A stretch of DNA of 64,000 nt from Tubulanus polymorphus. Lineage: Eukaryota; Animalia; Nemertea. The notes under the pieces are model-generated. The model searched no databases, was not told the origin of the DNA, and was given only the letters and a program-made list of their open reading frames with translations. The stretch covers positions 15,004,110 through 15,068,109 of the forward strand of contig NC_134030.1 in assembly GCF_964204645.1 (NCBI RefSeq). Direction: 5' to 3'. Below, in pieces: positions 28,982 through 52,663 of the stretch. Numbering within the stretch: the first letter of the stretch is position 1; each line of letters starts with the position of its first letter. The position numbers and the translations under genes are program-made.

Positions 28982-29001
28982 TTAATTTTTTTGTTAAATA
29001 A

Positions 29002-30247: not shown

Positions 30248-30279
30248 AATTTTAACTTTAATAAAAATATATATAATAA

Positions 30280-31292: not shown

Positions 31293-34200
31293 AGAGAATA
31301 AATTGAAACTAGAATATAAGGATGATATATTAGAAACTAAATTAGAAGAATTAAAGAATGAAAAAGAAACATATAAATGTGATACATGTAATCAATCATT
31401 CAGTGATAAAAGATATTATAAAGAACATTTAAAATCTATAAGTCATATTGGAAATAAGAATAATGATATTTTAGGTGAAGATTATTTTGATAATGATAAC
31501 GATAAGAAACAGAAGACAATTAAAAGAATAAAAAATAAATTAAACAATAAAAGACCATATATGGAAGATGTAAGAAATTATATTAATTCATTAGATAATA
31601 AAAAAGATATAGAGATAACCGAAGCATTTAAAAGTGATATTGGTCCAGCAGCTATTGAGTTTAAATTTCATAAAAGTAAAACAATAGAAGAAAATAAAAA
31701 ACATTTAGAAAATATGAAAGAAATAATAAAAATAATTACAGATGTTGAATATCCTAAAATAAGTATATCAGTTAAAGTAAAGTTTATAAAATCTGAAGAT
31801 AAACCAATATATAATATAAATTCTCATTCACAACATATTATATCTAAACAACATATAGATGATAAATTAAATAAATGTTATAATGAAATAAAAACTAAAA
31901 TAGAAGAGAAATATTTTGAAGGATCTGGTTTAATATTTGATGAGATAATATTTATAACTTTACATGTTTATAACACAAAATATAATAAGTTAACTAAATC
32001 AAAACCAATTGATGAAAATAATTTATCATATTATAAAGAACCCGATATTGAAGCATCAAGTTATATTAAACTACCATTTAAAACTAATGCTGTAATAAAT
32101 ATACAAAATGAAGATGATAAATGTTTTCTATGGGCTATAATAAGTTGTTTACATCCTGCAACTTATAATATTTGTAGATTAACTCATTATAAACCATTTG
32201 AAAATAATTATAAGATAGATAAGTATCCTGTTAGAATTAAAAACATCCCCAAAATAGAAAGAGATAATAATATAAAGATAAATATATTTGATTTAATCAA
32301 ATTACCAAATACAAAAGGTAACAACATAAAACATTATACATTAGAACCTTTATACCTATCAAAAGATTATGATTCAAATGATGTTATAGATATACTATAT
32401 TATGAGAATCATTATATGTGGATTAAAAGAATTGATTTATTTTTTAAATCAGAAAATGATTTTGATAATAAAATATATCTATGTAGAAAATGTTTACATA
32501 AATTCAGAACTGAAGGTGCATTATTAAATCATAAACAATTATGTGATAATCATGATTATTGTAAATTAGTTTTACCAAATAAAAAAGATAAAATATTAGA
32601 ATTCAAAAAATATGATTACAAAAATAAAGTACCATTTGTAATATATGGAGATTTTGAATCATTAAATAAAGAATTAACAGATAAAGATAGAAAAGATATA
32701 TATTATAAAAGAAAGAAATTAAATTCTAATGAAAATGATTTTTCAGATGAACCACCAATAACAAATACTATTAAAAAGATTCATCAATCAGCTGCAGCTT
32801 TCGGGTTATATATTAAATCTGATTATCCAGAACTAATTGAAAGTGAATATTATCATTACAGAAATGAAAATGTTATCAATCATTTTTGTGACTTATTAAT
32901 TGAATATGAAATAAAATTTAATGAAAAGTTAAATAAGAATATAGAAATAATTATGACAGAAGAAGATAAAGAAGTATTTGAGTTTGCAGATAAATGTTAT
33001 TATTGTGAAAAGATATTTAATTATAAAGATAAAAAAGTAAGAGACCATGATCATTTGAATGGAAAGTTTAGAGGCGCTGCACATGAGAATTGTAACTTAC
33101 AAGCTAAGAAAATTAATTTTGTACCAGTTATATTTTATAATCTATCAGGATATGATGCACATTTATTTATATAACAGCTATGTCATAAAATAGAAGAAAT
33201 CAATAATGAAATAGAAATATTAAATTCAAATAGATCAAAAGATAAAATACCAACTTATAAATTTAAAATGTTAGCTAAAACATCTGAGAATTATATATCA
33301 TTCCAATTTGGTTGTCTAATATTTATAGATTCATATAGATTTTTAAATAGTTCATTAGATAACTTATCAAAATCATTAGTTGATGATGAATTAAAAATAT
33401 TAAAAGAATATTACCCAAATTATGATGATTTTAAATTAATGAGATATAAAGGAGCAATTCCATATTCTTTCTATAAAAATCATAATGATTTTAACATAAC
33501 TGAATTATTGAAAGAACAATTCTATGATGAATTAAAAAATGAATATGTTAAAGATGAAGTTTATAATAGAACATTGAATATTTGGAATCATTTCAAAATA
33601 GAAAATCATGGGCAATTAGTAGATTTATATTTAAAATCAGATGTATTATTATTAACCGATATATTCGAAAGGTTTAGAGATGTAAACCTAAAATATTTTA
33701 ATATTGATCCATGTCATTGTTATTCATCACCAGGATTAACATGGGATTGTGGATTAAAATTTACAGATATAAAAATGGATTTGTTAACAAATATAGATCA
33801 ATTACTTTTATTTGAAAAATCTATAAGAGGAGGTGTTTCAGGTGTATTGGGTGATAGATATTTCAATGTAAATGATAATCCTGGATAAATTATTATACAT
33901 AGATGCAAATATCCTTTATGGTTGGGCAATGATGGAACCACAACCTTATGGGATGTTTGAAATAACTGAAGTTTTACAAATTGATAGATTTGATTGGAAG
34001 AAAAGAATCCTAGATATTGCAGATGATTCAGATATTGGTTACTTCTTTGTTGTAGATTTAGAATACCCTGAAAATATTAAATTAAAATCTAGAAATCTAG
34101 CATATTGTCCCGAACATAAAATTGTTAAACATGAAGAATTATCAAATTATCAAAAAAGAATTAAACCCGATAATCATATTCATACTGAAAAGTTAATGGT

Positions 34201-35227
34201 AACTCAAGAAGATAAATATAATTACGTTGTGCATTATAGAATGTTAAAATTCTATTTGAATCAAGGAATGATATTAAAAAAAGTACATAGATATATTTCA
34301 TTTAATCAATCTAAGTGGTTAGAAAAATATATAGATTTTAATACTACACAGAGAACTGAAGCTAAAACTGATTTTGAGAAGGATTACTTTAAACTAATGA
34401 ATAATGCGTTCTATGGAAAAACATGTGAAAACATAAGAAATAGAAGTGATATTGAGTTAGTTAGTAATGGTAAAAGAATTAGACATTTACAATCGTATCC
34501 GAAATTCATAGGTAACAGAATATTTGATGAAAATTTAGCAGCAGTTAAAATGAGAAGAACAAGTATGAAATTTAATAAACCAATTTATGTTGGTGCATCG
34601 GTTCTAGAAATTTCAAAATTATTAATGTATCAATTTTACTATAACATATTACAACCCCATTTTGGAGAAAAAAATATAGAAATGTTATATCTAGATACTG
34701 ACAGTTATATATTAAAGATAAAAAGTGATAATATAAAAGATGATTTAAAAATATTAAATCACCATTTTGATTTTAGTAACTATCCAAAAAATCATGAACT
34801 ATTTAGCAATGATAATAAAAAAGTTCCTGGTAAGTTTAAGGATGAATTAGGTGGTGAAGAAATGATAGAGTTCATAGGTATTAGATCTAAAATGTATAGT
34901 TATAAAACTAAAGAACATGAAGCTAAAAAGTTAAAAGGAATTACCAAAAGCGTTGTTGAAAAGAATATTCATTTCAAAGATTACATCAATTGTATATTTA
35001 ATGAAGAAGTTAGAAAACATAAAATGAAATGTTTAAGATCTGAAGATCATGAAATGTATATTGAAGAGATAGAGAAGATAAGTCTAAACCCATTTGATGA
35101 TAAAAGATATATTTTAGATGATGGAATCCACACAGTCGCCTATGGTTGCAATTTAGATGAATATATAAAATTCAAAAGAGAAGAAACAAAAGAAAATGAA
35201 ATTATGAAAAGGATTCTAACGTGTTAA
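31204..35227 (+). pseudogene. polB: Protein-primed DNA polymerase B (~1340 aa), copy C; one in-frame stop (33172) and one frameshift (~33885)
   Basis: N-terminal C2H2-like fingers, CFLWAI...HYMWIK, exonuclease with a CxxC..DHDH..GAAH..CN insert, YIDAN.LYG, KLMNNAFYGK, YLDTDS. Confidence 0.96.
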
Positions 35228-35255
35228 TAAATTTCAATAAAAATTTGTATAATAA

Positions 35256-35597
35256 ATGGAGAGTAAACAAGTACACAATGAATTCTTAGATAGAATTAAA
35301 GATACCACAAATGTAAAATCTGTAGATTATAAATTCAAAAAGTTAACAGAATTAACAATTCACAAGAAATATTTAATTACTAACATTGAAACAGTTACTA
35401 ACAAATATGGAGATAAATTAGTAATTCATTTAGAATATGAAGGATTAAAAGGAAATAAATATAAATTCAGAACTTATTTACCAGATAGATTTCATAGATT
35501 ATCAAGTGAAGATCTAGAAGAATTATGTTCTGGAGATTTCTATTTCGTATATAAAGGTAAGAATGAAAAAGGGCACCATGAAATAGATTTCGAATAA
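35256..35597 (+). CDS. 113-aa conserved protein next to polB (possible OB-fold DNA-binding protein)
   Basis: Intact; FKKLTEL...KYGDKLVIHL...YLPDRF beta-strand pattern. Confidence 0.75.
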   Translation: MESKQVHNEFLDRIKDTTNVKSVDYKFKKLTELTIHKKYLITNIETVTNKYGDKLVIHLEYEGLKGNKYKFRTYLPDRFHRLSSEDLEELCSGDFYFVYKGKNEKGHHEIDFE

Positions 35598-35614
35598 GAA
35601 AATACGTAAAATAA

Positions 35615-36373
35615 ATGGCGGAATTAAAAGAATACAGAATATTTGTTGATTCTAGAAGACTTACAAATTATAAATCACATAATTTACTAGTACAATTAGA
35701 TAGAGAATTCAAGAATTGTGTAGATTTAAAATTAGTAAATATAAGTTTATGTAATTCTTTTTACAATGTATCGGATAAGTCTATTGAACATAGAGTCTTT
35801 TTAATTTATGATAGAAATAAAAGTAAATGGTTTCATCTTTATCTTAAACCAGGATTATATAATTTAGAAACATTAGCTCAAGAAATTAATAGAAGAGCTC
35901 GGTTGAAAATGGGTGCATCTGCTGGATTTGGATTAAGACTGATTAAAAGTGATAGTTCTGATAAAATAAGAATAAAATTAGGTAATGAAGATCAACATCA
36001 ATTTCTAGTTAAAAAACCCTTAGCTAAAATTTTAGGAATAACCCCAGATGTAAGGATACGCAATGCTGATGCTACACCAAATATAATGCCATTTACACAT
36101 TTTTATATTTATTGCAATTTAATCGATCCTACAAAAACATTCGAAGCAACTAAAGATATAACTTGTAATTCTGGTTTACTAAACATTTTACCATTGAAGA
36201 ATGTTAAAGAATTTGGAACGCAAATAAATTATAATTTAACAGAATGTGATTTCAAACCATGCATTCCTCGTTTTAATAATTTTAGATTAGAAATTAGAAA
36301 TCATAATGGATACTTAATTGATTTAAATAATTTCCCTGTAATTTATGAATTAGTTATAAGATGTAAAGAGTAA
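35615..36373 (+). CDS. Minor capsid (penton-like, single jelly-roll) protein
   Basis: Typical pattern IFVDSR / NSFYN / PGLYNLETL / YIYCNLI / LEIRNHNGYLIDLN..VIYELVI. Confidence 0.82.
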   Translation: MAELKEYRIFVDSRRLTNYKSHNLLVQLDREFKNCVDLKLVNISLCNSFYNVSDKSIEHRVFLIYDRNKSKWFHLYLKPGLYNLETLAQEINRRARLKMGASAGFGLRLIKSDSSDKIRIKLGNEDQHQFLVKKPLAKILGITPDVRIRNADATPNIMPFTHFYIYCNLIDPTKTFEATKDITCNSGLLNILPLKNVKEFGTQINYNLTECDFKPCIPRFNNFRLEIRNHNGYLIDLNNFPVIYELVIRCKE

Positions 36374-36389
36374 TTTTTTCATTATATAA

Positions 36390-36660
36390 ATGAATATAAC
36401 TGTTGGACCGAGTATATGTTTTGGGTTTGATTTTAAACATGGTAAAGAAATGAGAAAATTATAATATAGAAAAAGTAATTGATTTAATTAAATCACCTTT
36501 AGAATATTATGAATTAAATGAAGATGGAATTATTGATGATATTAAAAACATATTATCCAAAATATATGATAATCATAAAACTAGTAATGAAATAAATGTT
36601 GAAATAATCATAAATAAGATAACTAAATATTTTGATGATAGTAATTTTTTTGATAAATAA
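36390..36660 (+). pseudogene. MNITVG protein with internal deletion
   Basis: Homologous to 7800..8141. Confidence 0.7.
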
Positions 36661-36882
36661 ATGAGTGATAATAAGTGGATAATAACTGGATTATATAATG
36701 GCGCATTACTATCAGTTGGAACTGTTGGTTATTCAATGGTATTAAAAAAAGTATTCAAAATGGGAAGTGTTAATGTTGATAGATTTGATATAAATGATAT
36801 TTTAAAGTTAACGTTAGCAGTTACTTTATCTAATTTAACTATTGATTATTTGGAAAAACAAAAATATATTCCTCCCATATAA
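36661..36882 (+). CDS. 73-aa hydrophobic/membrane protein
   Basis: Two hydrophobic segments; conserved between copies. Confidence 0.8.
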   Translation: MSDNKWIITGLYNGALLSVGTVGYSMVLKKVFKMGSVNVDRFDINDILKLTLAVTLSNLTIDYLEKQKYIPPI

Positions 36883-36906
36883 ATGTATAATTTTTTTGCT
36901 AAATAA

Positions 36907-37329
36907 ATGGCTTCTGCAATTATAACTATTATAGGATCGGCAATTGTTAACGCTTTAGCATTTACTGGTGGTGGTTATTTATTTAAACATATTGATAAAA
37001 ATAGTTCATTAGGAGAACAAAGAAGACATAACTTAGCGTTAGAGAAATACAATAAAGCTGCAGAAGAATATAGAGAAAAAAGACAAAACTATATGGATTA
37101 CATCAATAAAGAATTATATGATCAGAAGATTTCACATAGAGATTTTCAATCAGTTGATGATGCAATGAGTTTATATAACGCAGTAACAAATAAAGAAAAA
37201 TTACATCTATACAAACCTAAATTATCAGATTATTATACCCCAAGTAAAGAACAACAGAAATATGAAATAATTTGGATTTTAGGTGGAACAGTTATTGTTA
37301 TATTTGTTGCTTATAAGTTTACTAATTAG
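36907..37329 (+). CDS. 140-aa predicted membrane protein
   Basis: Hydrophobic N-terminus and C-terminal TM IIWILGGTVIVIFVAY. Confidence 0.85.
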   Translation: MASAIITIIGSAIVNALAFTGGGYLFKHIDKNSSLGEQRRHNLALEKYNKAAEEYREKRQNYMDYINKELYDQKISHRDFQSVDDAMSLYNAVTNKEKLHLYKPKLSDYYTPSKEQQKYEIIWILGGTVIVIFVAYKFTN

Positions 37330-37348
37330 TAATTTTTTTTCTAAATAA

Positions 37349-37783
37349 ATGGAAGATAAAGTTGATAGTATTGATATTATTCCTCATGATATAAATAAAA
37401 CTAAATTAAAAACATATTTAGAAAAACAAATATTAGAATTTGAAAGTGACTTAAAGATAAAAAAGAAAAAATATTTAAAAAGTTAAATTATATATTATTT
37501 GATTATAAGTGGTTCGGTTACAATTAGTTCTGTAATAACATTTCTAGCAATATTCAGTCCATTAACGCCTTTAGCTATATCAATTGGTGTGTTAGGATTA
37601 AGTTCAAGTGTTTTAACTGGTATAAGTTCAAAATTAAATATAAAAAGTAATAAAGAAAAAATCAAAACTAATATAAAAGAAATTAATAAATTAAAGAACA
37701 CACTAGATTATATAATAAGTTTAAATGGTCATATAACAGTTGAAGAACAAGATAAATTATTAAAAGAATTAATAAATTATTAA
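37349..37783 (+). pseudogene. Two-TM membrane protein (MEDKVD), frameshift near 37484
   Basis: TAAATG start; 3' part is track ORF 37499..37783. Confidence 0.72.
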
Positions 37784-37799
37784 TTTTTTAATTATATAA

Positions 37800-39101
37800 A
37801 TGGGGTTTCCAAAAGCTTTCCAATATAATAAATCAATTAAATATAATATTCCGGCAATAGATTTTAAGAAAAATATTACATATAAAAATATAGTTTTAAA
37901 TTCATTAACTAATTTAGAAATTTATGTTAATGAATCACAGTTTTTTATTTCTAAAATGGAAAATATATTTAATACATATGAAGTTACTTTTACTCGAGAT
38001 GAATATCATATATATAAAGTAAAATCTAATATGAAGTATTGGCAGAACCAATTAAATTTTGCTGTTTATTGTGCAACAACAGGATGTGGAATAAGTTGGA
38101 ATGATCATTTAAATAACTTAGATAAAAATTTGAAGTATTCTGATTTAAAATTAATTCACACAATATTTAGATTTCACACATATTTTCAAATCAGAATAAT
38201 ACTAAATGAATTAGAATGTCCTTTACCCGGGTCTAAATATTTTAAAGAATTGGATAATAATATTAATATATCCACGTTTTATAAAATATGTAATGAATTT
38301 AATATAAATATTAATTCCGATTTTAGAGCGCATGGTAAATTGCAAGGTGTTGGTGAAGAGTTTGAAATAAAAAGAATTGATTATATGCATAGAATTTCAG
38401 CTTATCATAATTATAAAATTGATAATAATAATGGTTGGGTTAATTTCATTTTAGAAAATGGTGAAGGTTTTACAAAATCAGGTATACAAAGAATAAATCA
38501 ATCTATTAGAATTTATTTGATATGTATTTTAGGCGCCCAAGTTGAAACAAGATCCCCAATAATTGGAAATGATAACACTTCATTCGATGCGCAGAAACAG
38601 TTTAAAGTTTTATTTGAAGATTCCATACATGATGATAAAAATAGATCGATTCCAGAAAACATTATAAGATATCAAAATTATTTAGATAAATCTCATGTAA
38701 GACTTAATTATTGTATAGGCCCTAATCTATTAATTATTTCTAATGATTTAGTATTGAAGATGGGAAACATAATTGGTTATAATAATCTAATTAAAACTGC
38801 AACAATAAATAATTCATTTGGATTGAATGATATAAATAAAAAGATTATTACTGCTCCAAAATTAATGGAAGGTGAAAAAAATAAAAAACATATTCAATCA
38901 ACAGAAACTAAAACTAAGAATATTAAATTAAATAATGATTCTAAAATAAAAGATTACAATACATCAGAAAATAATAGAACTGATAAAATTCAACATGATA
39001 TAATTAAACTAAATGATGATAATAAATCACATGAAAATACTAAATTAGCTATAACTTGTATAGGAATTGTAATCGGAGGAATATTATATTTTAAATTTTA
39101 A
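37800..39101 (+). CDS. 433-aa uncharacterised protein with C-terminal TM anchor
   Basis: Conserved YWQNQLNFAVYCATTGCG and RFHTYFQ blocks; C-terminal LAITCIGIVIGGILYF. Confidence 0.85.
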   Translation: MGFPKAFQYNKSIKYNIPAIDFKKNITYKNIVLNSLTNLEIYVNESQFFISKMENIFNTYEVTFTRDEYHIYKVKSNMKYWQNQLNFAVYCATTGCGISWNDHLNNLDKNLKYSDLKLIHTIFRFHTYFQIRIILNELECPLPGSKYFKELDNNINISTFYKICNEFNININSDFRAHGKLQGVGEEFEIKRIDYMHRISAYHNYKIDNNNGWVNFILENGEGFTKSGIQRINQSIRIYLICILGAQVETRSPIIGNDNTSFDAQKQFKVLFEDSIHDDKNRSIPENIIRYQNYLDKSHVRLNYCIGPNLLIISNDLVLKMGNIIGYNNLIKTATINNSFGLNDINKKIITAPKLMEGEKNKKHIQSTETKTKNIKLNNDSKIKDYNTSENNRTDKIQHDIIKLNDDNKSHENTKLAITCIGIVIGGILYFKF

Positions 39102-39117
39102 TTTTTTTATTATGTAA

Positions 39118-40833
39118 ATGGATGTAGAAGGTGGAGAAGATTATGAAATGGGAGAAATGGGAAATAATAATGAAGGATATATTGATGATGATTATAATGA
39201 TACAGGTGCTAATATCGATAATGATGATGAATCAGCATATAATACTAATTTAGGTGAAGATGATTATGATGATGATGATGGAATTAATACCGAAGTACGT
39301 GAAAAATTAAATAAATATTTAAAAGCTCCTGAAAGTGGTAGAATTTCAACTAGAACAGAAAGAAAAGAATTCATGAAACTATTAGAAAAACAACAAGAAA
39401 AATATCCTAATGAACATTTGGAATTATATAGAATGAAATCTAGAGTAACAGATACAATTGTTAACGAATTATTACCAAAAGTTGTAATAGATGAAATTGA
39501 TACTGAAGATGTTGTAGAACAAATTTTTAAAGATGACCCATATTTCACAAATAATTTAGAATTTAAAAATGATTCATGGTATTATAATCTTGAATTAAAT
39601 AGGAATACTGTATCAATTCAATTATCTAGAATGGGTCAAGAAAATATTTTTGAACCTGGAATGCGAGCATTATCTACAATTGAAGGTTCAAAAGGTGGTA
39701 GAGAATTTCTCAGAATTATATGGAATGCAATCGATAGAATAAATGAAGAAGAACCAATTCCTAATATTAATATAAACAAATATTCACCATTTAAAAATCC
39801 AAATCCTACTGATTTTGATCCAGAAATGGAAGATCATAGAAATCGATTAGATAAATTAAGATCTTCAACACCCGAAACATCGAGAAGAGACACTCAACAA
39901 ATTGATAATGATTCAAGTCAATTACAATTAACATTAGAAAAACAAATTGATAGATTAAGAGATTCAGAAGAACTGATGAATAGTATATCAGATACATCTG
40001 GTTCTGAAACTGGAATAAATCGAATACAATCTTTACTAGAAAAAGGATTACTTGATTTAACTGATGAAGAATTAAAAGAATTTCCTGAACAAGCACGTAG
40101 AGAAATTAAAGGTATACAAGAATCAGCTGGTGAAATTGCTAATATTAAGATGAGATTTTCTAAAATAACCATATTAGAAAAAGAATTAGTTAATGTAGAT
40201 GAAGAATTAAAACAATTAGAATTAAATAGAGATCTTCAATTAATCGAGGAAGCTGATTATGAAAGCAGAAAGTTAGCTTTAGAAAAAGAAATAGATGATT
40301 TAGAATATAACATAAAATTACAAAAAGAAGAAAGAGATACATTATTAAAATCATATGATCTTAATCATATTAAAAAATTAAAAGTTATTTTTAAAGATTT
40401 GTTGATAAAACCAGATTCTAAAATATCATTGAAAGATAGAATAAAGTTATTATTTAAATTAGAAGGAATAACAATTCTTTCAATTCTAACAGCTGTAACT
40501 ATGTTATTTACAACAATTGGTTTAGCTATATCAAATGCTTTAAAATCTACTCCTACTCCCACTCCCAATAAACCAGATAAACCTCCAGGTAATAATTCTA
40601 TACAAGATGAAGTTAAAGATGGTTTAAAGAAATTAGCAAAATATTTATGGGAACTATCTAAAAAATCTGCTGCAGCACTACCAGGAGTTATTGCTTCAAT
40701 TGTTGGTTTTGTTTTAAAATCTGCAGGTAATATTCTTAACTTTGCTGCTGAACATATTATTTTATTTTTAATTACAGTTGTAAGTGCTATTATTTTTGGT
40801 TTAGTAAATATGATATCAAAAAATATCAAGTAA
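39118..40833 (+). CDS. 571-aa acidic/coiled-coil protein with C-terminal hydrophobic helices
   Basis: Intact ORF; coiled-coil-like middle; GITILSILTAVTMLFTTIGLAI and IILFLITVVSAIIFGLV. Confidence 0.85.
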   Translation: MDVEGGEDYEMGEMGNNNEGYIDDDYNDTGANIDNDDESAYNTNLGEDDYDDDDGINTEVREKLNKYLKAPESGRISTRTERKEFMKLLEKQQEKYPNEHLELYRMKSRVTDTIVNELLPKVVIDEIDTEDVVEQIFKDDPYFTNNLEFKNDSWYYNLELNRNTVSIQLSRMGQENIFEPGMRALSTIEGSKGGREFLRIIWNAIDRINEEEPIPNININKYSPFKNPNPTDFDPEMEDHRNRLDKLRSSTPETSRRDTQQIDNDSSQLQLTLEKQIDRLRDSEELMNSISDTSGSETGINRIQSLLEKGLLDLTDEELKEFPEQARREIKGIQESAGEIANIKMRFSKITILEKELVNVDEELKQLELNRDLQLIEEADYESRKLALEKEIDDLEYNIKLQKEERDTLLKSYDLNHIKKLKVIFKDLLIKPDSKISLKDRIKLLFKLEGITILSILTAVTMLFTTIGLAISNALKSTPTPTPNKPDKPPGNNSIQDEVKDGLKKLAKYLWELSKKSAAALPGVIASIVGFVLKSAGNILNFAAEHIILFLITVVSAIIFGLVNMISKNIK

Positions 40834-40877
40834 ACCATGATATCAAAAAATAAATAATTAATTTTTTTGTTAAATAA

Positions 40878-42125
40878 ATGAGTGGGAGTTATATAAGTCC
40901 TTCTAAGATTTCTAGAATATCTAATGCTATTAAAGCAGAAAGATCACATCATATAATTACTCATAACCCTTCAAATATTAATCCCGATGAAACTTTATAC
41001 GTTAGAATCCCTCGATTAACACAAAATACTTTTTATGTTCCAAATAGTATTTATTTATCAGCTGATATAAAAGTAATCGGTAATAATAATAATTATGTCG
41101 TTGATAATGTTGGAAGATATTTGATTAAAAAGTTAACAATAAAGATTGGTCCGGAAACAGTTTTCTCATTAGATGATTATAATTTATTTATGCATTATAA
41201 AGATTTATGGTTAACTAAAGAAAATAGAAATAATATGATATTTCAAGGAATTCAATTAGAAAACCAAAATAAATTAAGATCAGAAGCTAATAGCGCAATA
41301 TTAACAAATGATGTAGGTAAATTGATAAAAAGTATATATGGAAGCAAATATAAAATTCCATTAGACTTTGAATTGATAAATAATAATGCACCTTTATATA
41401 AATACGCAATTCAAGAAGATATTATATTTGAGATAACATTTGCTCCTGTAAATGAAATTGTAATATCTAGCGTTAATAAAGATATGAGTTATAAATTATC
41501 GAATATATGTTTAGAATATGATACAGTAACTGATGAAAATATTGCTAGAACAATTCAAACTCAATACAATCAAGGATTTTCATTATTATATGATTATATT
41601 GATAAATTTAAAACTGTAACTATTAATGCAAATGATGAAATAATAAATGAGAATATTAACTTCCCAAGAAGATCTATTAAAGGTATATTAATATTTTTTA
41701 CTATTGGAACGTATACTAATGGCGCAATAAATGTTGACAATTATTATAATCATGAAATAACAAAAGTAGAAATAACTATCGAAGGTATAGCGAATAAAAT
41801 ATTTTGTCAAGGAATGAGAATGATAGATCAATGGGTAGAAATTAAAAAACATTTTATGAATGAAAAAGTAAAATCATTTGAAAATTGTAACATTAATCAA
41901 ATTGATTATTATACCGGTAATAAATATGCATTATGGTTAGATTTTAGAACAACTGAAGATAATTCATTACATGGTTCTGGAAAAAAACTACAAAACACTT
42001 AAGATGGAATACAATTATTCATGACAAAGAAAAAGGGAATCAAAAATTTTAAAATGCACATTTATATTATATCTGACGCGCAATTAAATATTGTAAATTC
42101 ACAATTAGATAGTGTTATGTATTAA
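40878..42125 (+). pseudogene. Major capsid protein, copy C; one in-frame TAA at 42000
   Basis: Homologous to 11980..13242; the frame continues to ...DSVMY* at 42125. Confidence 0.78.
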
Positions 42126-42157
42126 AATTTTAACTTTAATAAAAATATATATAATAA

Positions 42158-43114
42158 ATGGAAGGAGGTAAAGTATATAAACATATTCCATACATCGATA
42201 CACATGAAAATAATGATGGTTTATATTATGTAATACCTTGTAATATAGCTTTGATATTTGATCCTATTTTTAAAAATTATAAAACTAAACTGATAGAAAT
42301 CAATAATAATAAAAGTGGTGTTGTTAATAATAGTGTAATTGATAATAATGTAATACCTACTACACCTGTAATACCTACTACTACATCTGTAATACCTTCT
42401 ACATCTAATAGCGTAATACCTACTACATCTAATAACGTAATACCTACTACATCTGTAATACCTACTACATCTAATAACGTAATACCTTCTACATCTAATA
42501 ATGCAATAATATTAAATGTTAGTGAAAATAGAAATTATTGTGGTTATTGTAATGGTGAATTTTCAAACGCTCCATCAAATTGGAATAAACATATGAATAC
42601 AAATTCACATATTACTAATGTTATAGAACGTGTTGGTTTAAGAGAATTTATAGAACACCCATTTAGATATGTTACAAAGTTTGTTTCAAATAAAAAAGTA
42701 AATGGTGAAAAAATATATGAAGATTTATTATTAGCAACACCTAATAAAGATGAATTAGATTTAACTGATGCTAATGAAATATTAGGATCAAACACTGTAA
42801 ATGAAATATTAGGAGCAAACACTAATAAAGATGATAATGAAAATGATGCCATACACCCACATGATGATATAGTTACAGTTAAACATATTGATAATAAAGA
42901 TTCTATAAAACTTAAAGTAGAAAATAATGATAAATTTGATTGGATGAATAAGTTTAAAAATGAAACAACTATTGGTGGTGTGGTAAAAAAGGTGAAAAAG
43001 GTGAAAAAAAATTATAAAGATGTTGATGTAGATTCGGTAGAGCATTTAAATATGTTGTTAAGACCGTCTGATAGTGAAAGTGATTCAGAAATTGATTATC
43101 TAAAACTTGAATAA
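42158..43114 (+). CDS. 318-aa protein with VIPTT/S repeats and a C2H2-like zinc finger
   Basis: YCGYCNGEF...WNKHMNTNSH; acidic tail. Confidence 0.8.
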   Translation: MEGGKVYKHIPYIDTHENNDGLYYVIPCNIALIFDPIFKNYKTKLIEINNNKSGVVNNSVIDNNVIPTTPVIPTTTSVIPSTSNSVIPTTSNNVIPTTSVIPTTSNNVIPSTSNNAIILNVSENRNYCGYCNGEFSNAPSNWNKHMNTNSHITNVIERVGLREFIEHPFRYVTKFVSNKKVNGEKIYEDLLLATPNKDELDLTDANEILGSNTVNEILGANTNKDDNENDAIHPHDDIVTVKHIDNKDSIKLKVENNDKFDWMNKFKNETTIGGVVKKVKKVKKNYKDVDVDSVEHLNMLLRPSDSESDSEIDYLKLE

Positions 43115-43171
43115 TAAAAGTTGAAAATTGTATAAAATAATATTAAATAAAAAAAGGGTTTTAATTATTCA

Positions 43172-43288
43172 AGGTATCTAATGGGGTATCAGGTATTAGG
43201 GTATCTAATAGGGTATCAGGTATTAGGGTATCAGGTATTAGGGTATCTAATGGGGTATTAGGTATTAGGGTATCTAATACATAGGTAT
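43172..43288 (+). repeat. Short GGTAT-based tandem repeat in the convergent intergenic gap
   Basis: GGTATCTAATGG / GGTATCA / GGTATTAG units. Confidence 0.85.
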
Positions 43289-43296
43289 ACAAATAG

Positions 43297-43908
43297 TTAT
43301 TTTATAAATTTATATTCATAAGGAAATTGTAATCTCAGTAATAATTTTGAACCTTTATTATTTTTTAATTTATTCATATATTCATCATGTAATTCAGTAG
43401 GTATAATTTGATTTTCTTCCAATGATTGTTGCATAGATTTTCTATCTTTGTTGTAGAATAAAACTAGAAATCTTATATTCTCTCTAAAATCTTTCACAAT
43501 TGAATTATATTTCTGATTTAAAACCCATGTTGTTATCCCAAAATGTCTACCAGAGAAAGCTAAATAACATAACTCACTTTCTCTAATTTTAGAATCATGT
43601 AAATTTGCGCAATCATCAATAATAAATAATGTATTTGATCCTTTATAAATATCTAATACAATTTTTATACAATTATCTAAATTTTCTTTTACTATTTTAG
43701 GGTCTAATATAATAAACTTTTTTATCTTAACTATATCTCTATTATATGTTTTATTCATTTCATATGTAGGACAGAATAATATTATATTATCAAAATGATT
43801 CTTATAAATAGTTTCTAACAAATCTAATATGAAATGTGTTTTACCACAATTTGTAACTCCAGTAACTAACATATTATGTGGTTCAAATATAAATAAATCT
43901 TTATTCAT
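43297..43908 (-). CDS. A32/FtsK-like genome packaging ATPase
   Basis: Walker A GVTNCGKT, Walker B FIIDD, SGRHFGITTWVLNQ. Confidence 0.92.
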   Translation of the reverse strand: MNKDLFIFEPHNMLVTGVTNCGKTHFILDLLETIYKNHFDNIILFCPTYEMNKTYNRDIVKIKKFIILDPKIVKENLDNCIKIVLDIYKGSNTLFIIDDCANLHDSKIRESELCYLAFSGRHFGITTWVLNQKYNSIVKDFRENIRFLVLFYNKDRKSMQQSLEENQIIPTELHDEYMNKLKNNKGSKLLLRLQFPYEYKFIK

Positions 43909-44989
43909 TTATTCTTTTAATTTTACTAGATAAAATCCATTCATTAAATTTATCATCATATCCTTTATATTTCACCAAAGAATACTTTTTTCCTTTAAGA
44001 GTTTTTGTTTTCAATACTTTTTCTATTTTGTATTCTATTTCATCTGGATTTGGTACTAATGATAATTCTTGTTCATAAAAATAACCTAATATTTCTTCAT
44101 CTTTTAGATCTTCTAGTTTATAAACAAATGGTTTAGTTAATATTATCTTTTTAATTTTAAATATTTCTTCAGTAAAATTAGGGGTATAACCTTTATAAAA
44201 TGTTTTTCGATATTTAGAAATTCTAACGTGTTGTCCTATCTTAAATTTAGGTTCACCGAAATCATGTGTAACAAATGCTCCATATAAATTATTCCAAACT
44301 ATTTCCGAATTATCTTCTTTTCTAGCTTGTATGGGTTTCATATTTATAGAACTATGTTTAGAATTATTATAACCTTTCACTAAATCATCTAACACATCGA
44401 TATATTTATATGTTTCATTAGCGGTGAAATATTTCCACATTCTAGTTTTCAATGTTTTATTAAATCTTTCTATAACAGATGCTTTTTTATCTGAATGTGT
44501 TGAAAAATATTCTACATCGTTATCAGATAATAGTTTTTTAAAATGTTTGTTATAAAATTCTTTACCTTCATCAAATTGTATTTTATCTGGGATAGCTTCT
44601 TTAAATATAGATTTAAAAGCATTTGTTACTTCTATACCAGTTTTATTTTTAATCGGGATACTCCATGCGTATCTACTGAATATGTCTATAACATTCAGTA
44701 TCCAAAAATATCCTTTGTTGTATTCTTCTAAGTTCTTCATGTCAATTAAATCAGCTTGCCATTGTTGGTCAATATATGAAACCATAACTTTTCTTGTTAA
44801 ATATTTTTTATCCATCTTTTTATGAATTTGATATGTGGGTTGATTTTGTAACCATGATTTTAATTCACTATATTTTATATCACTATTATCGGATTTAATT
44901 TTATTCCATAATTCTGAAACGTTAGAATATGATACTTCACTTTCTGGGTTATAATATAAATCTCTTAAATATTGTTCTTTTTTCATCAT
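43901..44989 (-). CDS. int: Retroviral-type (rve) integrase with C-terminal chromodomain
   Basis: WQADLIDM, IDIFSRYAW, FDEGKEF, IERFNKTLK; YKIEKVL...VKYKGYDDKFNEWI. Confidence 0.95.
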   Translation of the reverse strand: MMKKEQYLRDLYYNPESEVSYSNVSELWNKIKSDNSDIKYSELKSWLQNQPTYQIHKKMDKKYLTRKVMVSYIDQQWQADLIDMKNLEEYNKGYFWILNVIDIFSRYAWSIPIKNKTGIEVTNAFKSIFKEAIPDKIQFDEGKEFYNKHFKKLLSDNDVEYFSTHSDKKASVIERFNKTLKTRMWKYFTANETYKYIDVLDDLVKGYNNSKHSSINMKPIQARKEDNSEIVWNNLYGAFVTHDFGEPKFKIGQHVRISKYRKTFYKGYTPNFTEEIFKIKKIILTKPFVYKLEDLKDEEILGYFYEQELSLVPNPDEIEYKIEKVLKTKTLKGKKYSLVKYKGYDDKFNEWILSSKIKRINE

Positions 44990-44992
44990 ATT

Positions 44993-45352
44993 TTAATCCA
45001 TTAATAATATTTTAGATTTATTTTCATTTGATTTATTTTCTGGTGGTTTATTGTCTGTACATGGATAACTAAGTTTCCGATCATCTTTATCGTCAGATTT
45101 GAATTTTGATTTGTATATTACACCGGATAATATAATAACTGTTACTAACCCAATTGTAATATATAAGTAATTATTTCTTCCACTATTAGAAGAATTAGAT
45201 GGATTATTATTTGAATCAATACCAGGTGATTCATTTATATCAGTTAATTTCTTTTTCTTAGCTTTTTTTAATTCTGATGATCTTTTACCTAATTCTCTTG
45301 CCCATTTAATTTGTTTCTCTGATCTAGCCTTTTTCTTAACTCCATCACTCAT
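44993..45352 (-). CDS. 119-aa basic protein with one TM segment
   Basis: YITIGLVTVIILSGVIY; intact in B and C. Confidence 0.8.
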   Translation of the reverse strand: MSDGVKKKARSEKQIKWARELGKRSSELKKAKKKKLTDINESPGIDSNNNPSNSSNSGRNNYLYITIGLVTVIILSGVIYKSKFKSDDKDDRKLSYPCTDNKPPENKSNENKSKILLMD

Positions 45353-45947
45353 TTATTTTAGTTAATTTTTGTTCTGATTCATCTTCTGTTTCAACGTTTG
45401 GTTGTAGTACATCTGTTTCGTTCTTACCTGATTTATATTCCATAGGTTTGATGTTTGAAAATGTTATAACTCCAGTAGAAATCAATGTCATAACCGATCC
45501 TAATTGAAATGAAGCATATCCAACCCATTTTTGTAATTCAGTCATAACTAAATAGTCATTTTTCAAATCATTATATAATTTATTTTCATCATCAATTGGT
45601 ATTAACTGCTTACATAATTTTGAATAACATTTGATAATACCATCACTTATAGAGTCGTTTATTCTAGCTAATCTTGCCTCTTCATAAATCTTAAAATATT
45701 TTATTACTTTATCGGGTTTCATAGAGTCTAGTTCTTGAAAAGTTATTATTTTTCCTAAGAAGTCCTTAGATTTCCCACCAGCAATTAATAATTCAAGATG
45801 ATGCTTACAATATAAATAGTATTCATAATCTATATTGTTATTAACTTGAGCACAATTAGTTGCAACTGTATCTTTATTATCACTTATACCCAAATCATCT
45901 AATGTCTTTTCAATATCAATACTATTCTTATTAGATTTCTTTGACAT
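45345..45947 (-). CDS. 200-aa uncharacterised Polinton protein
   Basis: Intact in B and C with many synonymous differences. Confidence 0.85.
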   Translation of the reverse strand: MSKKSNKNSIDIEKTLDDLGISDNKDTVATNCAQVNNNIDYEYYLYCKHHLELLIAGGKSKDFLGKIITFQELDSMKPDKVIKYFKIYEEARLARINDSISDGIIKCYSKLCKQLIPIDDENKLYNDLKNDYLVMTELQKWVGYASFQLGSVMTLISTGVITFSNIKPMEYKSGKNETDVLQPNVETEDESEQKLTKINE

Positions 45948-46216
45948 TTATATTAGAGAAATTTAATAAGAAAAATATTATAAGTATTATAAAATGATAC
46001 CAGTATCTCTTTAGATTAATACTAGCTTAGTAAAAGGTAAAGAATTTTAGTATTGACTACTGATACTAGCTATTTGAATTTAAAGAATTTCTATTTGAAT
46101 CTATTTAAAATATAAAGTATTCTCTTTTGAAAAAAAAGTATCAAAAATATAATAGAAATAATAGATAGTTGAAGGTATGTAATTTTTATTATATTTTATT
46201 TAAAATCTATTATTCT

Positions 46217-46882
46217 TTAACCACTCATTAAAGACTCAACGTATTGTTCATTATGTGTTGAATTCCATAATTCAATAAATTTTTTTGCTTTATCCAGTTG
46301 ATTCAAATATAACTGTAAATCTAGTTTATTAGATTTAATTATATTTTCTTTCTTTTCAAGAGGTCTTAGATTCTTCCAATTCCAAATAAGTTTTTTATTA
46401 TATTCATCATTCATGTTAAATTTAGATATTGGTAACACGTGATCAATGTGGTAATAATCCCCATAATTATCTATATTCATTTTATCATCGAATTGAAATA
46501 TTATCCATGATTTGAGAAATTCATCTGAACAACCCAACAAATTAGATAGTGTTTCTGAATGTGTTTCTTTGTTGAATAATTGTGTTATTCAAGTCCTTAA
46601 GCATTGTTTCAATCTAAAATTAAGATCTGTTTGATATCTTTCTCTCATATATTTTGTCATATAATAATTATAATGTTTTATATTATCTTCTCGATATTGT
46701 TTGGTGTATAGTTTAGCACAAGTTTTACAACAATTTTGAAAACCATCTTTGCTAATCTTACGCTTACTAAATTCTGTTATAGCTAATTTATCTAATTCAC
46801 ATTTAGAACACTTCTTGTAGTATATGTTTATAACGCCAGTGTTATTTGTAATATTGATAGTTTGTGGTTGTTCTGGTTCCAT
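46217..46882 (-). pseudogene. HNH endonuclease, disrupted in copy C
   Basis: Two track ORFs homologous to intact 52664..53335. Confidence 0.8.
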
Positions 46883-47020
46883 TTATTATATGTATTTTTT
46901 TTACTAAATTGGTTAATAATTTTAGAATCCTCTTCCATTTCTCCGACTAACGTCATCCTTTTTCATTCCTCGCTGTTTTTGATAAGTCAGTTTCGATTCC
47001 TTGATATCTAAATAATACCA

Positions 47021-47490
47021 CTGGGCAAAACCGCGCATTCATGCGCGCTTTTGATCAATGCGCATGCGCTAATCATAATTATATATTCATTCTGTAAATT
47101 CTGTAAAATAGAAACGACCGAACACAGAAAATATCAAAACGTGTTCACATTAGGTAAAACCGCGCATTCGTGCGCGCTTTTGATCAATGCGCATGCGCTA
47201 ATCATAATTATATATTCATTCTAGAAATAGAAACGACCGAACATAGAAAATTCAAACGCATGTACACTAGGCAAAACCGCTCTTATAGGAGCGTTTTTGA
47301 TCAATGCGCATGCGTTAATCATAATTATATTTACATAATGAATATATAATTATGTAAATAGAAACGACCGACATAAAATATCAAAACGTGTTCGCATTAG
47401 GTAAAACCGCTCTTATAGGAGCGCTTTTGCTTAATGCGCATGCGCTAATTATAATTATATATTCATTCTGAATAGAAACGACCGAACATA
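47021..47490. repeat. Four ~117-130-bp tandem units, each with a stem-loop and TGCGCATGCG
   Basis: Units start at ~47021, 47151, 47268 and 47398; copy B has a single unit (~53472-53550). Confidence 0.9.
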
Positions 47491-48456
47491 AAAATTCATC
47501 AATCAGATTTACACAATACATTATACAAGTTGTTCGGTCGTTTCTTCCAATACATCATTTGATTTCTATAAATACAATTTATAATTACAAACATTTTTTC
47601 AATTGCTGGTAAATATTTAACTACATCAACAAATGTTAAACTTAATCATTGGAGTCTTAATGTTTTTGAAATTCTTATATAGTTTCTTCGACGATCTTTT
47701 GGGCGATTCTTGTGTTTCTTGTGTTAATTTCTATTGGTTTGATATCCATTGCTGTTGATTCCTCAGTCAGAAAGAGTATCTTGAGTTTCTCTATCACTTC
47801 TTGATGCGTATGGCGTTTTACTAATCTAAAAGATATTAGCGGTAACTCTAACTATCTAAAAGATATTCTAAATACGCTTAAATATATCTAAAGGTTTCAT
47901 ATTTAATAGCCTTAATAACTACAACAAACAGTACTTACATTTAGATTTATAATTGTAAACTATAAACTCCTAATTTCGTTTCGAAAGATAGAATATCCTG
48001 AGCACAATATTACAGCGTATATCCCGTCATCTAGTTCCGGCGCGCCTTTCTAGAATATTCTCTACACGTTTCTGATTATGACGCGTCATCTCTATTCAGA
48101 GTTCCAGCACAGTTTGTAATATTATGAGTCATAATGTCTCGTTGTTATAGTAACAACTGTAACAGCTGTGAATTTATAGATTTATTCTATGGCTCTGTAC
48201 ATTGAATGTATATAGGCCCAAATAGAATCATGTTCTAGTATAAACATCTAGAACAAGCGTGTTGAGACTTGTAAATTATGAGATTTGTGATTCGCTACGT
48301 TCGCTGTATACACAACGTGTTGAAGTTGAAAAAAACAATAATAAAAGCATTTAGATTAATGAAATTAATTAACTCTTTACAATTGAAATATAAGCTGGTA
48401 ACATATGTTTACTAGAGCTAATACAACCAACTATATAGCTGAGTATTATCGGGTGT

Positions 48457-48630
48457 TTATAACGATTCAACATATTTTTCACCATGTGTTGAGTTCCTTA
48501 ATTCGATAAATGTCTTTGCTTTAACCAACTGGACTAAAAACAAATGTGTTATAGTTTTATTGTGTCTTGCTTTTTGAGACTTGTCTATATCGATATTACA
48601 TGTTGGGCAGTAGTATTTATTTGCTTCCAT
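48457..48630 (-). CDS. 57-aa chimeric ORF: polB first zinc finger fused in frame to an HNH-gene C-terminal tail
   Basis: Manual translation MEANKYYCPTCNIDIDKSQKARHNKTITH-LFLVQLVKAKTFIELRNSTHGEKYVESL*. Confidence 0.45.
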   Translation of the reverse strand: MEANKYYCPTCNIDIDKSQKARHNKTITHLFLVQLVKAKTFIELRNSTHGEKYVESL

Positions 48631-49089
48631 TTTAATACTATATTTTTTATTAAAATTGATTTTAGAAGTTCAATGATTTAAATGTTATTCATATATATGT
48701 GAATATTTTAAGAGTAATAGGGGTTTAGTTGTTTCGGGTTAAAGGTTTAATGATCGAGTTCATTAATAACAAATATTAAAAGTAATTAAAAAACTATAAT
48801 ATATTTTCATAACCGCGTGCATTTCGGTTGAATAATAGAATAATTATTATCATTTGAATATATTTGATTATTTAAATTTGTGTATTGTAATTAAATCAAT
48901 TGGTCGTGGAGCGGAGCGGTAGCGAAGCGGAGCGACCAATTGATTTAATACAATATGCTTTTTATATTATTGATATCTTATAATAAATATTTAGTTTTGA
49001 TATAAAATGCACGCGGTTATGAAAATATATTATAGTTTTTTAATTACTTTTAATATTTGTTTTTTAATGGGCTCGACCGTTCGACCTTT
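48542..49089 (-). repeat. Right TIR of copy C (fold-back 48713-49089, outer end deleted)
   Basis: Reverse complement of the left TIR of copy C. Confidence 0.95.
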
Positions 49090-49372
49090 ATTAAGGTCTA
49101 ACACTAAGAAAGATGATAATGAAAATGGCGCCGTATGGCACCGACATGGTGATATAGTTACAGATAAGCATTTTGATAATAAAGATTCTATGAAACTTAA
49201 ATCAGAAAATAAAGATATAGTTGAGATGACTAATAAGTATATCGATAAACCAATTATATATGAAGATACGGTAAAAAGGGTGAAGAATAAGTATAAAAAT
49301 AATGAAGAATTAGAAGAAGATTCGGTAGAGAATTTGAGAAAATTGTTAGGGTATGATAGTGAAAGTGATTAA
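49090..49372 (+). pseudogene. 3' part of the copy B MEGGK gene
   Basis: NTKKDDNEN...DIVTDKHFDNKDSMKLK...DSVENL...DSESD aligns to the C-terminus of 42158..43114. Confidence 0.8.
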
Positions 49373-49759
49373 GATATTAATTATATTTAACTCAAATAAT
49401 AATATTAGTTGAAAATTGTATAAAATAATATTAAATAAAAAAGGGGGTTTTTAGTATTTAAGGTATCTAATACATATCTAATACGTATCTAATACGTATC
49501 TAATACGTATCTAATACGTATTATTTGAAAATACCTTAAATTATATTTCTTTTTTAAATTTATATTGAAACCTCAGTAATAATAAATAACCTTTATTATT
49601 TTCAAACTTATTCATATATTAGTTGAAAAAAATAAAAATAAATTGGTTGAAAATTATATGAATAATATTTATTTTAAAAATGGGGTTTTAAGTATTAATG
49701 TATTTAATACGTATCTAATACGTATTTAATACACATTAGATAGATAGATATATAAATAG

Positions 49760-50371
49760 TTATTTTATAAACTTATATTCATAGGGAAATTGTAGTCTCA
49801 GTAATAATTTTGAACCTTTATTATTCTTTAATTTATTCATATATTCATCATGTAATTCAGTAGGTATGATTTGATTTTCTTCCAATGATTGTTGCATAGA
49901 TTTTCTATCGTTATTGTAGAATAAAACTAGAAATCTAATGTTTTCTCTAAAGTCTTTAACAATTGAATTATATTTTTGATTTAAAATCCATGTTGTTATC
50001 CCAAAATTTCTTCCAGAGAAAGCTAAATAACATAACTCACTTTCTCTAACTTTTGAATCATGTAAATTTGCGCAATCATCTATAATGAATAATGTATTTG
50101 ATCCTTTATAAGTATCAATTGCTATTTTAATACAATTATCTAAATTTTCTTTTACTGTTTTAGGGTCTAACATAATAAACTTTTTTATCTTATCTATGTC
50201 TCTATTATATGTTTTATTCATTTCATAAGTAGGACAGAATAATATTATATTATCAAAATGATTCTTATAAATAGTTTCTAACAAATCTAATATGAAATGT
50301 GTTTTACCACAGTTGGTTACACCAGTAACTAACATATTATGCGGTTCAAATATAAATAAATCTTTATTCAT
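49760..50371 (-). CDS. A32/FtsK-like packaging ATPase (copy B)
   Basis: GVTNCGKT, FIIDD. Confidence 0.92.
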   Translation of the reverse strand: MNKDLFIFEPHNMLVTGVTNCGKTHFILDLLETIYKNHFDNIILFCPTYEMNKTYNRDIDKIKKFIMLDPKTVKENLDNCIKIAIDTYKGSNTLFIIDDCANLHDSKVRESELCYLAFSGRNFGITTWILNQKYNSIVKDFRENIRFLVLFYNNDRKSMQQSLEENQIIPTELHDEYMNKLKNNKGSKLLLRLQFPYEYKFIK

Positions 50372-51455
50372 TTATTCTTTTAATTTTACTAGATAAAATC
50401 CATTCACTGAATTTATCATCATATCCTTTATATTTCACCTAAGAATAATTTTTTCCTTTAAGAGTTTTTGTTTTCAATACTTTTTCTATTTTGTATTCTA
50501 TTTCATCTGGATTTGGTACAAGTGATAATTCTTGTTCATAGAAATAACCTAATATTTCTTCATCTTTTAGATCTTCTAATTTATAAACAAAAGGTTTAGT
50601 TATTATTATCTTTTTAATCTTGAATATTTCTTCTGTAAAATTAGGAGTATAACCTTTATAAAATGTTTTTCTATATTTAGATATTCTAACGTGTTGTCCA
50701 ATTTTAAATTTAGGTTCTCCGAAATCATGTGTAACACACGCCCCATATAAATTATTCCAAACTATTTCTGAATTATCTTCTTTTCTAGCTTGTATAGGTT
50801 TCATATTTATAGAACTATGTTTAGAATTATTATAACCTTTCACTAAATCATCTAACACATCGATATATTTATATGTTTCATTAGCAGTAAAATATTTCCG
50901 CATTCTAGTTTTCAATGTTTTATTAAACCTTTCTATAATAGATGCTTTTTTATCTGAGTGTGTTGAAAAATATTCTACATCGTTATCAGATAATAGTTTT
51001 TTGAAATGTTTGTTATAGAATTCCTTACCTTCATCAAATTGTATCTTATCTGGAATAGCTTCTTTAAATATAGATTTAAAAGCATATGTCACTTCTATTC
51101 CAGTTTTATTTTTGATTGGAATTGACCATGCGTATCTACTGAATATGTCTATAACATTCAGTATCCAGAAATATCCTTTGTTGTATTCCTCTAAGTTCTT
51201 CATGTCAATTAAATCAGCTTGCCATTGTTGATCGATATATGAAACCATAACTTTTCTTGTTAAATAAGTTTTATCCATTTTCTTGTGTATTTGATATGTT
51301 GGTTGATTTTGTAACCATGATTTCAATTCAGTATATTTTATATCACCATTTTCTATATCAGATTTAATTTTATTCCATAATTCTGTAACGTTAGAATATG
51401 ATACTTCACTTTCTGGGTTATAATATATATCTCTTAAATATTGTTCTTTTTTCAT
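50364..51455 (-). pseudogene. int: rve integrase (copy B), frameshift in the chromodomain near 50445
   Basis: DDE motifs intact; tail shifted relative to 43901..44989. Confidence 0.9.
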
Positions 51456-51461
51456 CTTATT

Positions 51462-52416: not shown

Positions 52417-52663
52417 TTATATTAGAGAAAAAAAGCAAAAAAAATATTATAAGTATTCTTCAAATGATACTAGTATCTCTTTGGGTTAATACTAGTTAGT
52501 TAAAGGTAAAGAATTTTAGTATTAGTTATTGTTTTTTTAGTATTTTTTATTTGTGATATAAAGTATTCTTTTTTGAAAAGAAAATATTAAAAATATAATA
52601 GAATTCACTAGCTAGTTGAAGTTATTGTTTTTTAAATATTTTTTATTTAAAATCTATTATTCT

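Follow-up and report, generated by a model that had tools for sequence, protein, structure and literature searches.

Genes of an integrated Polinton-type element in the nemertean Tubulanus polymorphus begin with a shared sequence signal, TAAATG, that overlaps the start codon. The element lies in a 64,000-nucleotide stretch of contig NC_134030.1 (positions 15,004,110 to 15,068,109), which we call the window, and is present there as copies A, B and C. Judging from the arrangement of repeats, copies A and B are probably parts of one older element, into which the younger copy C has inserted. We confirmed that the TAAATG motif in copy C is real and well beyond chance. Together with a T- or A-rich core some ten bases upstream, it is the conserved start signal of a Polinton lineage found in metagenomes as well. 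From sequence evidence, we think it rather more probable than its competitors that the element is a virophage-like satellite and that these starts are poxvirus-type post-replicative promoters, which a pox-related helper virus would read with its RNA polymerase.

TAAATG marks gene starts in copy C

The original prediction, made from the window sequence alone, distinguished two forms of the motif, which we write as T5+-N5-9-TAAATG (T-run class) and AAAA(A)T-N5-9-ATAAATG (A-run class). Promoter positions are counted back from TAAAT. All 13 copy C starts that it listed, and the minus-strand start at 52416(-), proved to be ATGs preceded by TAA. The starts at 36390, 36661, 36907, 37349, 37800, 39118 and 40878, along with 52416(-), all fit the T-run pattern; those at 35256, 35615, 42158, 46882(-), 45352(-) and 43908(-) all fit the A-run pattern. 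The polB start reads TAAAATG, as claimed. A 14th TAAATG start, at 45947(-), was absent from the first list and has TTT at -11 to -9. T occupies -10 in 8/8 T-class window starts and A occupies it in 5/6 of the A class.

Counted on the coding strands, TAAATG is found at 14/16 gene starts of copy C versus 23/389 internal ATGs (Fisher p 2e-14). When only ATGs already preceded by AA are compared, the next base upstream is T in 14/15 starts versus 23/66 internal ATGs. At the other starts of open reading frames (ORFs) in the window, which belong to a Pao retrotransposon and the flanks, the count is 0/5, a very small sample.

Two of the predicted details held only in part. The integrase, said to lack the motif, indeed has an ATG without TAAATG, but TAAAAT lies directly before that ATG and its orthologues in the related loci L001, L009 and L052 start with TAAATG. 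With the TAAA initiator merely shifted off the ATG and the orthologues carrying the full motif, this gene is no clear exception. The motif also recurs in copies A and B, as predicted, but their start regions are 80-99% identical, too similar for these copies to count as independent evidence, which therefore has to come from other elements.

The motif is conserved in related elements

An alignment of the capsid protein led to 80 metagenome loci. After near-duplicate loci and short fragments had been dropped from the representatives, we used 15-17 TAAATG-type loci, depending on the test, and 18 others. The TAAATG group was set after viewing the capsid starts, so that the capsid start is circular evidence, which does not apply to the other genes. 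Eleven diverged loci (29-44% G+C) have TAAATG at 36/42 homologous-gene starts versus 13/671 internal ATGs; in the 18 other family loci it is present at 0/90 starts. Gene order is rearranged between TAAATG loci. Only a short gap separates the capsid gene of L052, and likewise that of L061, from its divergent neighbor, and this gap carries TTT-N8-TAAATG on both strands. The polB gene of L064, to which the window polB references gave no match, has a TAAATG start preceded by an A-rich core. Genomic copies of two promoters vary at 1/26 motif positions versus 5/12 spacer positions (p 0.008), a count that covers 40 of 41 variable sites; the T-runs vary in length too.

In quick capsid trees, the 14 TAAATG rows share a well-supported half with two or three TATA-type rows. 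A single origin of the TAAATG rows was neither rejected nor demonstrated (approximately unbiased test, p 0.17). Queries with the capsid, 433-aa and ATPase proteins recovered no member of the element family from viral_contigs, and none was found in genome_contigs.

Several features of the related loci stand on their own. A deoxynucleoside kinase gene at L001:10343-10981 (-) (Pfam dNK, E 2e-31) has a T-class TAAATG start. In eight GC-rich loci (L016, L018, L021, L025, L026, L027, L028 and L034), which have no TAAATG, AATAAA or ATTAAA follows the stop codon within 60 nt in 0/50 cases. At L016:9970-13596 (-), a 1209-aa ORF with AAA_30 and AAA_19 helicase-type matches replaces polB, which suggests, from the sequence, that the replication module has been swapped. 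A capsid relative with 53% identity, cluster P0047, is filed under several Bartonella assemblies. It is probably carried-over host DNA, and it hints that the close clade occurs outside marine animals too. For close relatives of the capsid, the clusters listed no animal host by name.

Two promoter classes

We fixed the two classes from the window and scored them in other loci by T-minus-A at -13 to -10. The predicted division stood for orthologous genes in four close relatives (13 vs 11 starts, p 0.003) and overall (42 vs 23 starts, within-locus permutation p 0.003), but it is weak in distant relatives (29 vs 12 starts, p 0.11). The ATPase and 318-aa genes are A-like throughout, as is the one other polB start (L064), while the 113-aa, HNH-like and 252-aa genes change class in some loci. 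A single AAATTT-type core with two settings may underlie both classes. That the A-run genes (polB, ATPase, 252-aa and 318-aa) are expressed before the T-run genes (capsid and membrane-type) is plausible and unproven; we put it slightly short of an even chance.

The start signal resembles poxvirus post-replicative promoters

In vaccinia late promoters, TAAATG spans the start codon and the 10th base upstream is a conserved T; intermediate promoters have TAAA without the -10 T and an A-rich upstream region (PMC11980589; here and below, statements on cited papers refer to those parts of them that were accessible). Both late features occur in the element, where TAAAT overlaps the start codon and a T cluster lies near -10, and the A-class window starts show the intermediate combination of TAAA, no T at -10 and an A-rich upstream region. 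At the capsid and membrane-block genes of the diverged loci, T is present at -11, -10 and -9 in 19/27, 22/27 and 24/27 starts (background 0.34). Over 42 starts of these loci, G+C goes down to 0.05 at -11 and -10.

We then looked at poxviruses in the same way. In five poxvirus control loci, TAAATG is found at 42/91 ORF starts, with a T peak of 0.64 at each of -10 and -9 (background 0.37); these 42 starts represent about ten genes across several genomes and are not independent. In 17 control loci, T clusters lie within -12 to -8 at F17, I2, I7 and G1, genes that are late in vaccinia. T is likewise present at -10 and -9 in I5 and E11, which are intermediate genes. These gene names are tentative assignments by gene order and size; Pfam supports only E2, E10 and I1. 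The claimed likeness to post-replicative promoters agrees in initiator sequence, in overlap with the ATG and in the position of the T cluster. In poxviruses, transcription starts at the TAAAT-type element, on which slippage generates a poly(A) leader; a fish poxvirus has retained this element (PMC4542343).

A sister lineage has TATA and VLTF3-like genes

Two family loci outside the TAAATG group, L031 and L032, have TATA shortly before the ATG at 7/9 and 6/8 starts. In L031:623-8918 and in L032, most ATGs are preceded by TTTCT, 8-9 bases and TATA in place of TAAATG. The asfarvirus late initiator resembles this TATA (PMC7163114). L031 encodes a VLTF3-like protein at 6543-7049 (Pfam E 6e-4, below the cut-off), L032 also encodes one, and L022 has a VLTF3-like gene at 385-933 (-) with a match above the cut-off (E 6e-8); gene starts of L022 lie in TATAAAAAATG-like contexts. 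The VLTF3-like profile has no match in the window or in the TAAATG loci. VLTF3 in some polintoviruses has already been reported (PMC11131425). The lineage-specific motifs of this family parallel those of the mavirus-like elements discussed below.

A helper virus may read the element

The original prediction held that the element has no RNA polymerase, and none turned up in the ORFs scanned. Polymerase, capping enzyme and transcription factor families had no match in 17 ORFs of copy C, 52 further window frames and 22 ORFs of related loci, the VLTF3-like gene excepted; the 52 frames are out of 60 listed, the 8 left out belonging for the most part to the flanks or to Pao. All genes, including polB, have an initiator of the post-replicative type, and this fits a satellite without access to the early machinery that its helper packages in the virion. 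There is a precedent in endogenous mavirus-like elements, which carry the late promoter of their helper; their types differ in motif, and only the matching type is reactivated (PMC10945749).

On the helper-virus reading, the chromosomal element, with its rve integrase and terminal repeats, would be expressed when a helper infects the cell. The pox-type polymerase of the helper would start inside TAAAT and produce short poly(A) leaders. The element would then copy itself with its own polB and package itself with its own capsid and ATPase. An integrated nuclear copy would have to meet a cytoplasmic polymerase.

Several observations weigh against this proposal, in addition to the weak class separation in distant relatives and the genes that change class. 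A helper virus sequence was found neither in the window nor in the family loci retrieved. Among the proteins of the element, no poxvirus-specific family was found save the A32 ATPase, which is general to Polintons. No poxviruses of marine invertebrates (Chitovirales) are described in the literature searched. TAAAN initiators occur in yeast cytoplasmic linear elements too (PMC6211774), so that the motif marks a type of polymerase rather than Poxviridae. Transcription of coral polintoviruses is seen in ordinary coral samples, and the accessible text makes no mention of a helper, whatever promoter type these viruses may use (PMC11131425). Finally, the double-jelly-roll gene D13L of vaccinia is intermediate (PMC11980589), unlike the T-class capsid gene here. 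A scan of viral_contigs for poxvirus polymerases returned only relatives with at least 61% identity and no divergent marine lineage.

This promoter bears on whether animal Polintons replicate autonomously or depend on a helper. If the helper-virus reading is true, the mavirus type of endogenous virophage would extend from protists to animals, and pox-related viruses would be predicted in marine invertebrates. We found no prior report of a TAAATG motif in Polintons in a search in which most matches were judged by their listing and subscription journals lay largely outside; within the literature searched, this would be the first link between Polintons and poxvirus transcription at the promoter level. 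A broader idea is that the elements form a widespread family of animal Polintons living as endogenous virophages of pox-related viruses, with the TAAATG branch using poxvirus intermediate and late transcription and the TATA branch using an asfarvirus-like polymerase and its own VLTF3-like factor. We offer this tentatively, as something that may well turn out otherwise. If true, one would expect from the promoter type that marine invertebrates have pox-type viruses yet to be seen and that the elements have an inducible antiviral role in animals.

Alternative explanations

One alternative is that the motif arose as a by-product, be it of AT richness, AAAATG Kozak bias, overlap of stop and start codons or an upstream AATAAA. 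The element has 24% GC, 10/14 window starts read AATAAATG, which at first sight favors the poly(A)-signal explanation, and an upstream stop codon opens the T-run in three T-class starts. Nonetheless, the TAA of TAAATG is the upstream stop in 0/9 plus-strand window starts tested (gaps 16-44 nt), and two minus-strand motifs sit inside upstream coding sequence. In the relatives, tandem starts have the motif in 42/46 cases, with TAA the upstream stop in 3 of those 42; head-to-head starts, where neither a stop codon nor a poly(A) signal lies upstream, keep it in 13/14; and only 20/55 TAAATG starts read AATAAATG. L013, L014 and L011, members of the 18 other loci that are equally AT-rich (26-30% GC), have TAAATG at 0/9 starts. 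Kozak bias, overlapping stops and AATAAA, named in advance as explanations that could overturn the motif, thus failed in the window and in the relatives, and we regard a by-product as very improbable and largely refuted. We also dropped a trans-splice acceptor, as the spacer has no conserved AG. A test for nuclear transcription by counting AATAAA inside ORFs gave 73 observed/68 expected for the element and 4 vs 3 for the Pao control, and has no power. TTTTTNT is depleted in TAAATG lineages (26 vs 60), and this is not counted because T5 runs overall are depleted likewise (101 vs 193).

The remaining alternatives accept the signal and differ in what reads it. It could be a lineage-specific core promoter of host RNA polymerase II or a translation-start context, working in the nucleus with no helper, which we consider unlikely. 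The element is indeed integrated in the nuclear genome in many copies, and imperfect repeats in the right arm of copy C (47060-47445, within 47000-47500) contain the palindrome GCGCATGCGC three times versus 0 expected from shuffles. This palindrome, we presume, resembles the animal NRF1 site and might serve a host-driven phase. Expression of coral polintoviruses in host tissue points the same way (PMC11131425). However, a TATA-like element that touches the ATG would put the start inside the ORF, given that the TATA of RNA polymerase II lies about 24 bp upstream of the start (PMC7163114); the family members with no TAAATG at any of their 90 starts come from similar metagenomes; the T cluster is fixed at -11 to -9, the poxvirus position; and the other ORF starts in the window, few as they are, lack the motif. 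A helper polymerase that is not pox-related, from another large DNA virus or a cytoplasmic plasmid-like element, with TAAAT converged or inherited, is improbable as well. Promoters of many giant-virus groups are unmapped, the accessible text of an egovirus preprint has no promoter analysis (10.1101/2024.03.23.586382), yeast linear elements use TAAAN (PMC6211774), and the TATA and VLTF3-like gene of L031 and L032 imply that helpers may differ within the family. Yet the asfar-, irido-, asco- and mimivirus motifs reviewed, as far as the accessible sources give them, have no TAAAT over the ATG with a -10 T cluster, and the TAAAT element is conserved down to fish poxviruses (PMC4542343). Less probable again is that the motif is a relic of past dependence on a pox-type helper, with copies now spreading or decaying without it. 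Five broken genes in copy C and the lack of a known helper would agree with a relic; the low variation of motif positions relative to the spacer among genomic copies (two promoters only) and the persistence of the motif through gene rearrangement and composition change in the relatives speak against it.

Genes and architecture of the element

Copy C has the hallmarks of Polintons/Mavericks: a protein-primed polB, an rve integrase, an A32-like ATPase, a double-jelly-roll capsid and terminal inverted repeats (Table 1). An adenain-type protease had no Pfam match in 17 ORFs of copy C and 52 further frames, though a divergent protease could escape. The double jelly-roll of the major capsid protein is seen in its structural model (predicted local distance difference test, pLDDT, 75), whose best Foldseek matches are the PBCV-1 capsid and vaccinia D13 (E 2e-8 to 5e-7). 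The 252-aa gene presumably encodes a minor capsid protein, judged by resemblance; it has no Pfam match. The 433-aa family has 116 relatives with invariant cysteines. Its model is a confident fold (pLDDT 84) that matched no viral or solved fold beyond the terminal helix, and the protein may be a new membrane-anchored virion protein. The L009 homologue of the HNH-like gene has a weak HNH match.

Copy C is nested, inserted within the 318-aa gene of the older copy, and its left end sequence matches the sequence at 1969. Its terminal inverted repeats are about 550 bp long and 100% complementary, in two blocks. Based on the repeats, the older element seems to have a single pair of terminal repeats and a tandem duplication of about 10.6 kb in its interior, and to contain the Pao insertion and the nested copy C. 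No 6-bp target-site duplication was found around 1969-54718; copy C is clipped at its right end. The Pao pol shares 97% identity with a Tubulanus polymorphus protein, which by itself makes this worm, or one closely related to it, the probable host. Genomic reads cover the element deeply and with many variants; the element is therefore a multi-copy family. Only four matches, 18-27 bases long, came from a run presumed to be RNA, and they carry no information on expression.

Table 1. Features of the window, with the start motif of each gene
Feature	Position	Strand	Start motif	Remarks
Older element (copies A and B)	1969..54718	.		Repeat families D2-D17, inverted repeats I2, I7, ends
Pao retrotransposon gag + pol	20702..26005	-		Inserted in older copy
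Copy C of Polinton-type element	30721..49089	.		24% GC; terminal inverted repeats I1/I4
Left terminal inverted repeat, copy C	30749..31292	+		Partner 48542-49089
Protein-primed DNA polymerase B (polB)	31204..35227	+	A-run core + TAAAATG, 31181..31206	Start 31204; three ORFs (broken); Pfam DNA_pol_B_2 E 8e-6; copy A E 4e-13
113-aa gene	35256-35597	+	A class, 35235..35258	Weak lead to phi29-type ssDNA-binding protein, atlas lead score 0.85
252-aa gene	35615-36373	+	A class, 35594..35617	No Pfam match
Gene broken in copy C	36390	+	T class, 36371..36392	Homologue of 126-aa ORF in L001
73-aa gene	36661-36882	+	T class, 36642..36663	
140-aa gene	36907-37329	+	T class, 36888..36909	Both ends hydrophobic
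Gene broken in copy C	37349	+	T class, 37330..37351	Homologue of hydrophobic 144-aa ORF in L001
433-aa gene	37800-39101	+	T class, 37781..37802	Conserved family; hydrophobic helix at C-terminus
571-aa gene	39118-40833	+	T class, 39099..39120	Three hydrophobic segments
Major capsid protein gene	from 40878	+	T class, 40859..40880	Premature stop 42000-42002 in copy C
318-aa gene	42158-43114	+	A class, 42137..42160	
A32-type packaging ATPase	43297-43908	-	A class, 43906..43929	Pfam Pox_A32 E 5e-11; motif inside integrase coding sequence
rve integrase-chromodomain gene	43901-44989	-	TAAAAT directly before ATG, 44987..44995	Pfam rve E 2e-9 + chromodomain
119-aa gene	44993-45352	-	A class, 45350..45373	Motif inside 200-aa coding sequence
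200-aa gene	45345-45947	-	TAAATG, 45945..45968	
HNH-like gene	start 46882	-	A class, 46880..46903	Split in copy C; 223 aa in copy B at 52664-53335
Right terminal inverted repeat, copy C	48542..49089	-		Outermost bases absent at right end

Three further repeat structures were noted. An internal inverted repeat of about 60 bp occurs in every terminal repeat, its arms 176-186 bp apart (30774-31069, 48765-49064, 2023-2326). A 24-bp tandem repeat of variable copy number lies inside the 318-aa gene (30447-30660, 42358-42543), and the host flank holds a small inverted-repeat element with several internal repeats at 62195-62760.

Comparison with known systems

Mavericks/Polintons, including adintoviruses (PMC8502044) and coral polintoviruses (PMC11131425), share with the element polB, rve, the A32 ATPase, a double-jelly-roll capsid, terminal inverted repeats and residence in an animal genome; the adenain protease was undetected here. 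The word promoter is absent from the main texts of both papers. The entomopoxvirus-associated AHEV_PLV1/2, CBEV_PLV1 and Ca_PLV1 are likewise Polinton-like and are proposed parasites of poxviruses in animals, but they have an adenovirus-type protease and no rve, and come from occlusion bodies of insect poxviruses or a beetle genome (PMC11296320). The terms promoter, motif and TAAAT do not occur in the main text of that paper. The element described here is set apart by its description, with rve, no detected protease, a membrane-type gene block and probably a marine host.

Mavirus and the endogenous mavirus-like elements of Cafeteria, with CroV, resemble our element in being integrating elements with polB and rve that share a promoter motif, and there, too, motif types are taken to imply different helpers. 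Their host is a protist, however, their helper belongs to the mimivirus family and their late motif is TCTA; helper dependence was shown there and is inferred here (PMC10945749). Yeast pGKL1/2 are small linear elements with a poxvirus-type TAAAN initiator. Unlike our element, they have their own polymerase and capping enzyme, and their upstream element is related to poxvirus early promoters (PMC6211774).

The closest match in the promoters themselves is with vaccinia late and intermediate genes. In both systems TAAAT overlaps the ATG. One class then has its T cluster some ten bases upstream, and the other lacks the -10 T and is A-rich upstream (PMC11980589; PMC5294985). The assignment of genes is similar in places: membrane-type genes are T class here and tend to be late there, and the A32 ATPase is A class here while A32L is intermediate there (PMC11980589). 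In contrast to vaccinia, these promoters lie in an 18-kb integrating element without a detectable polymerase, and no early class is apparent.

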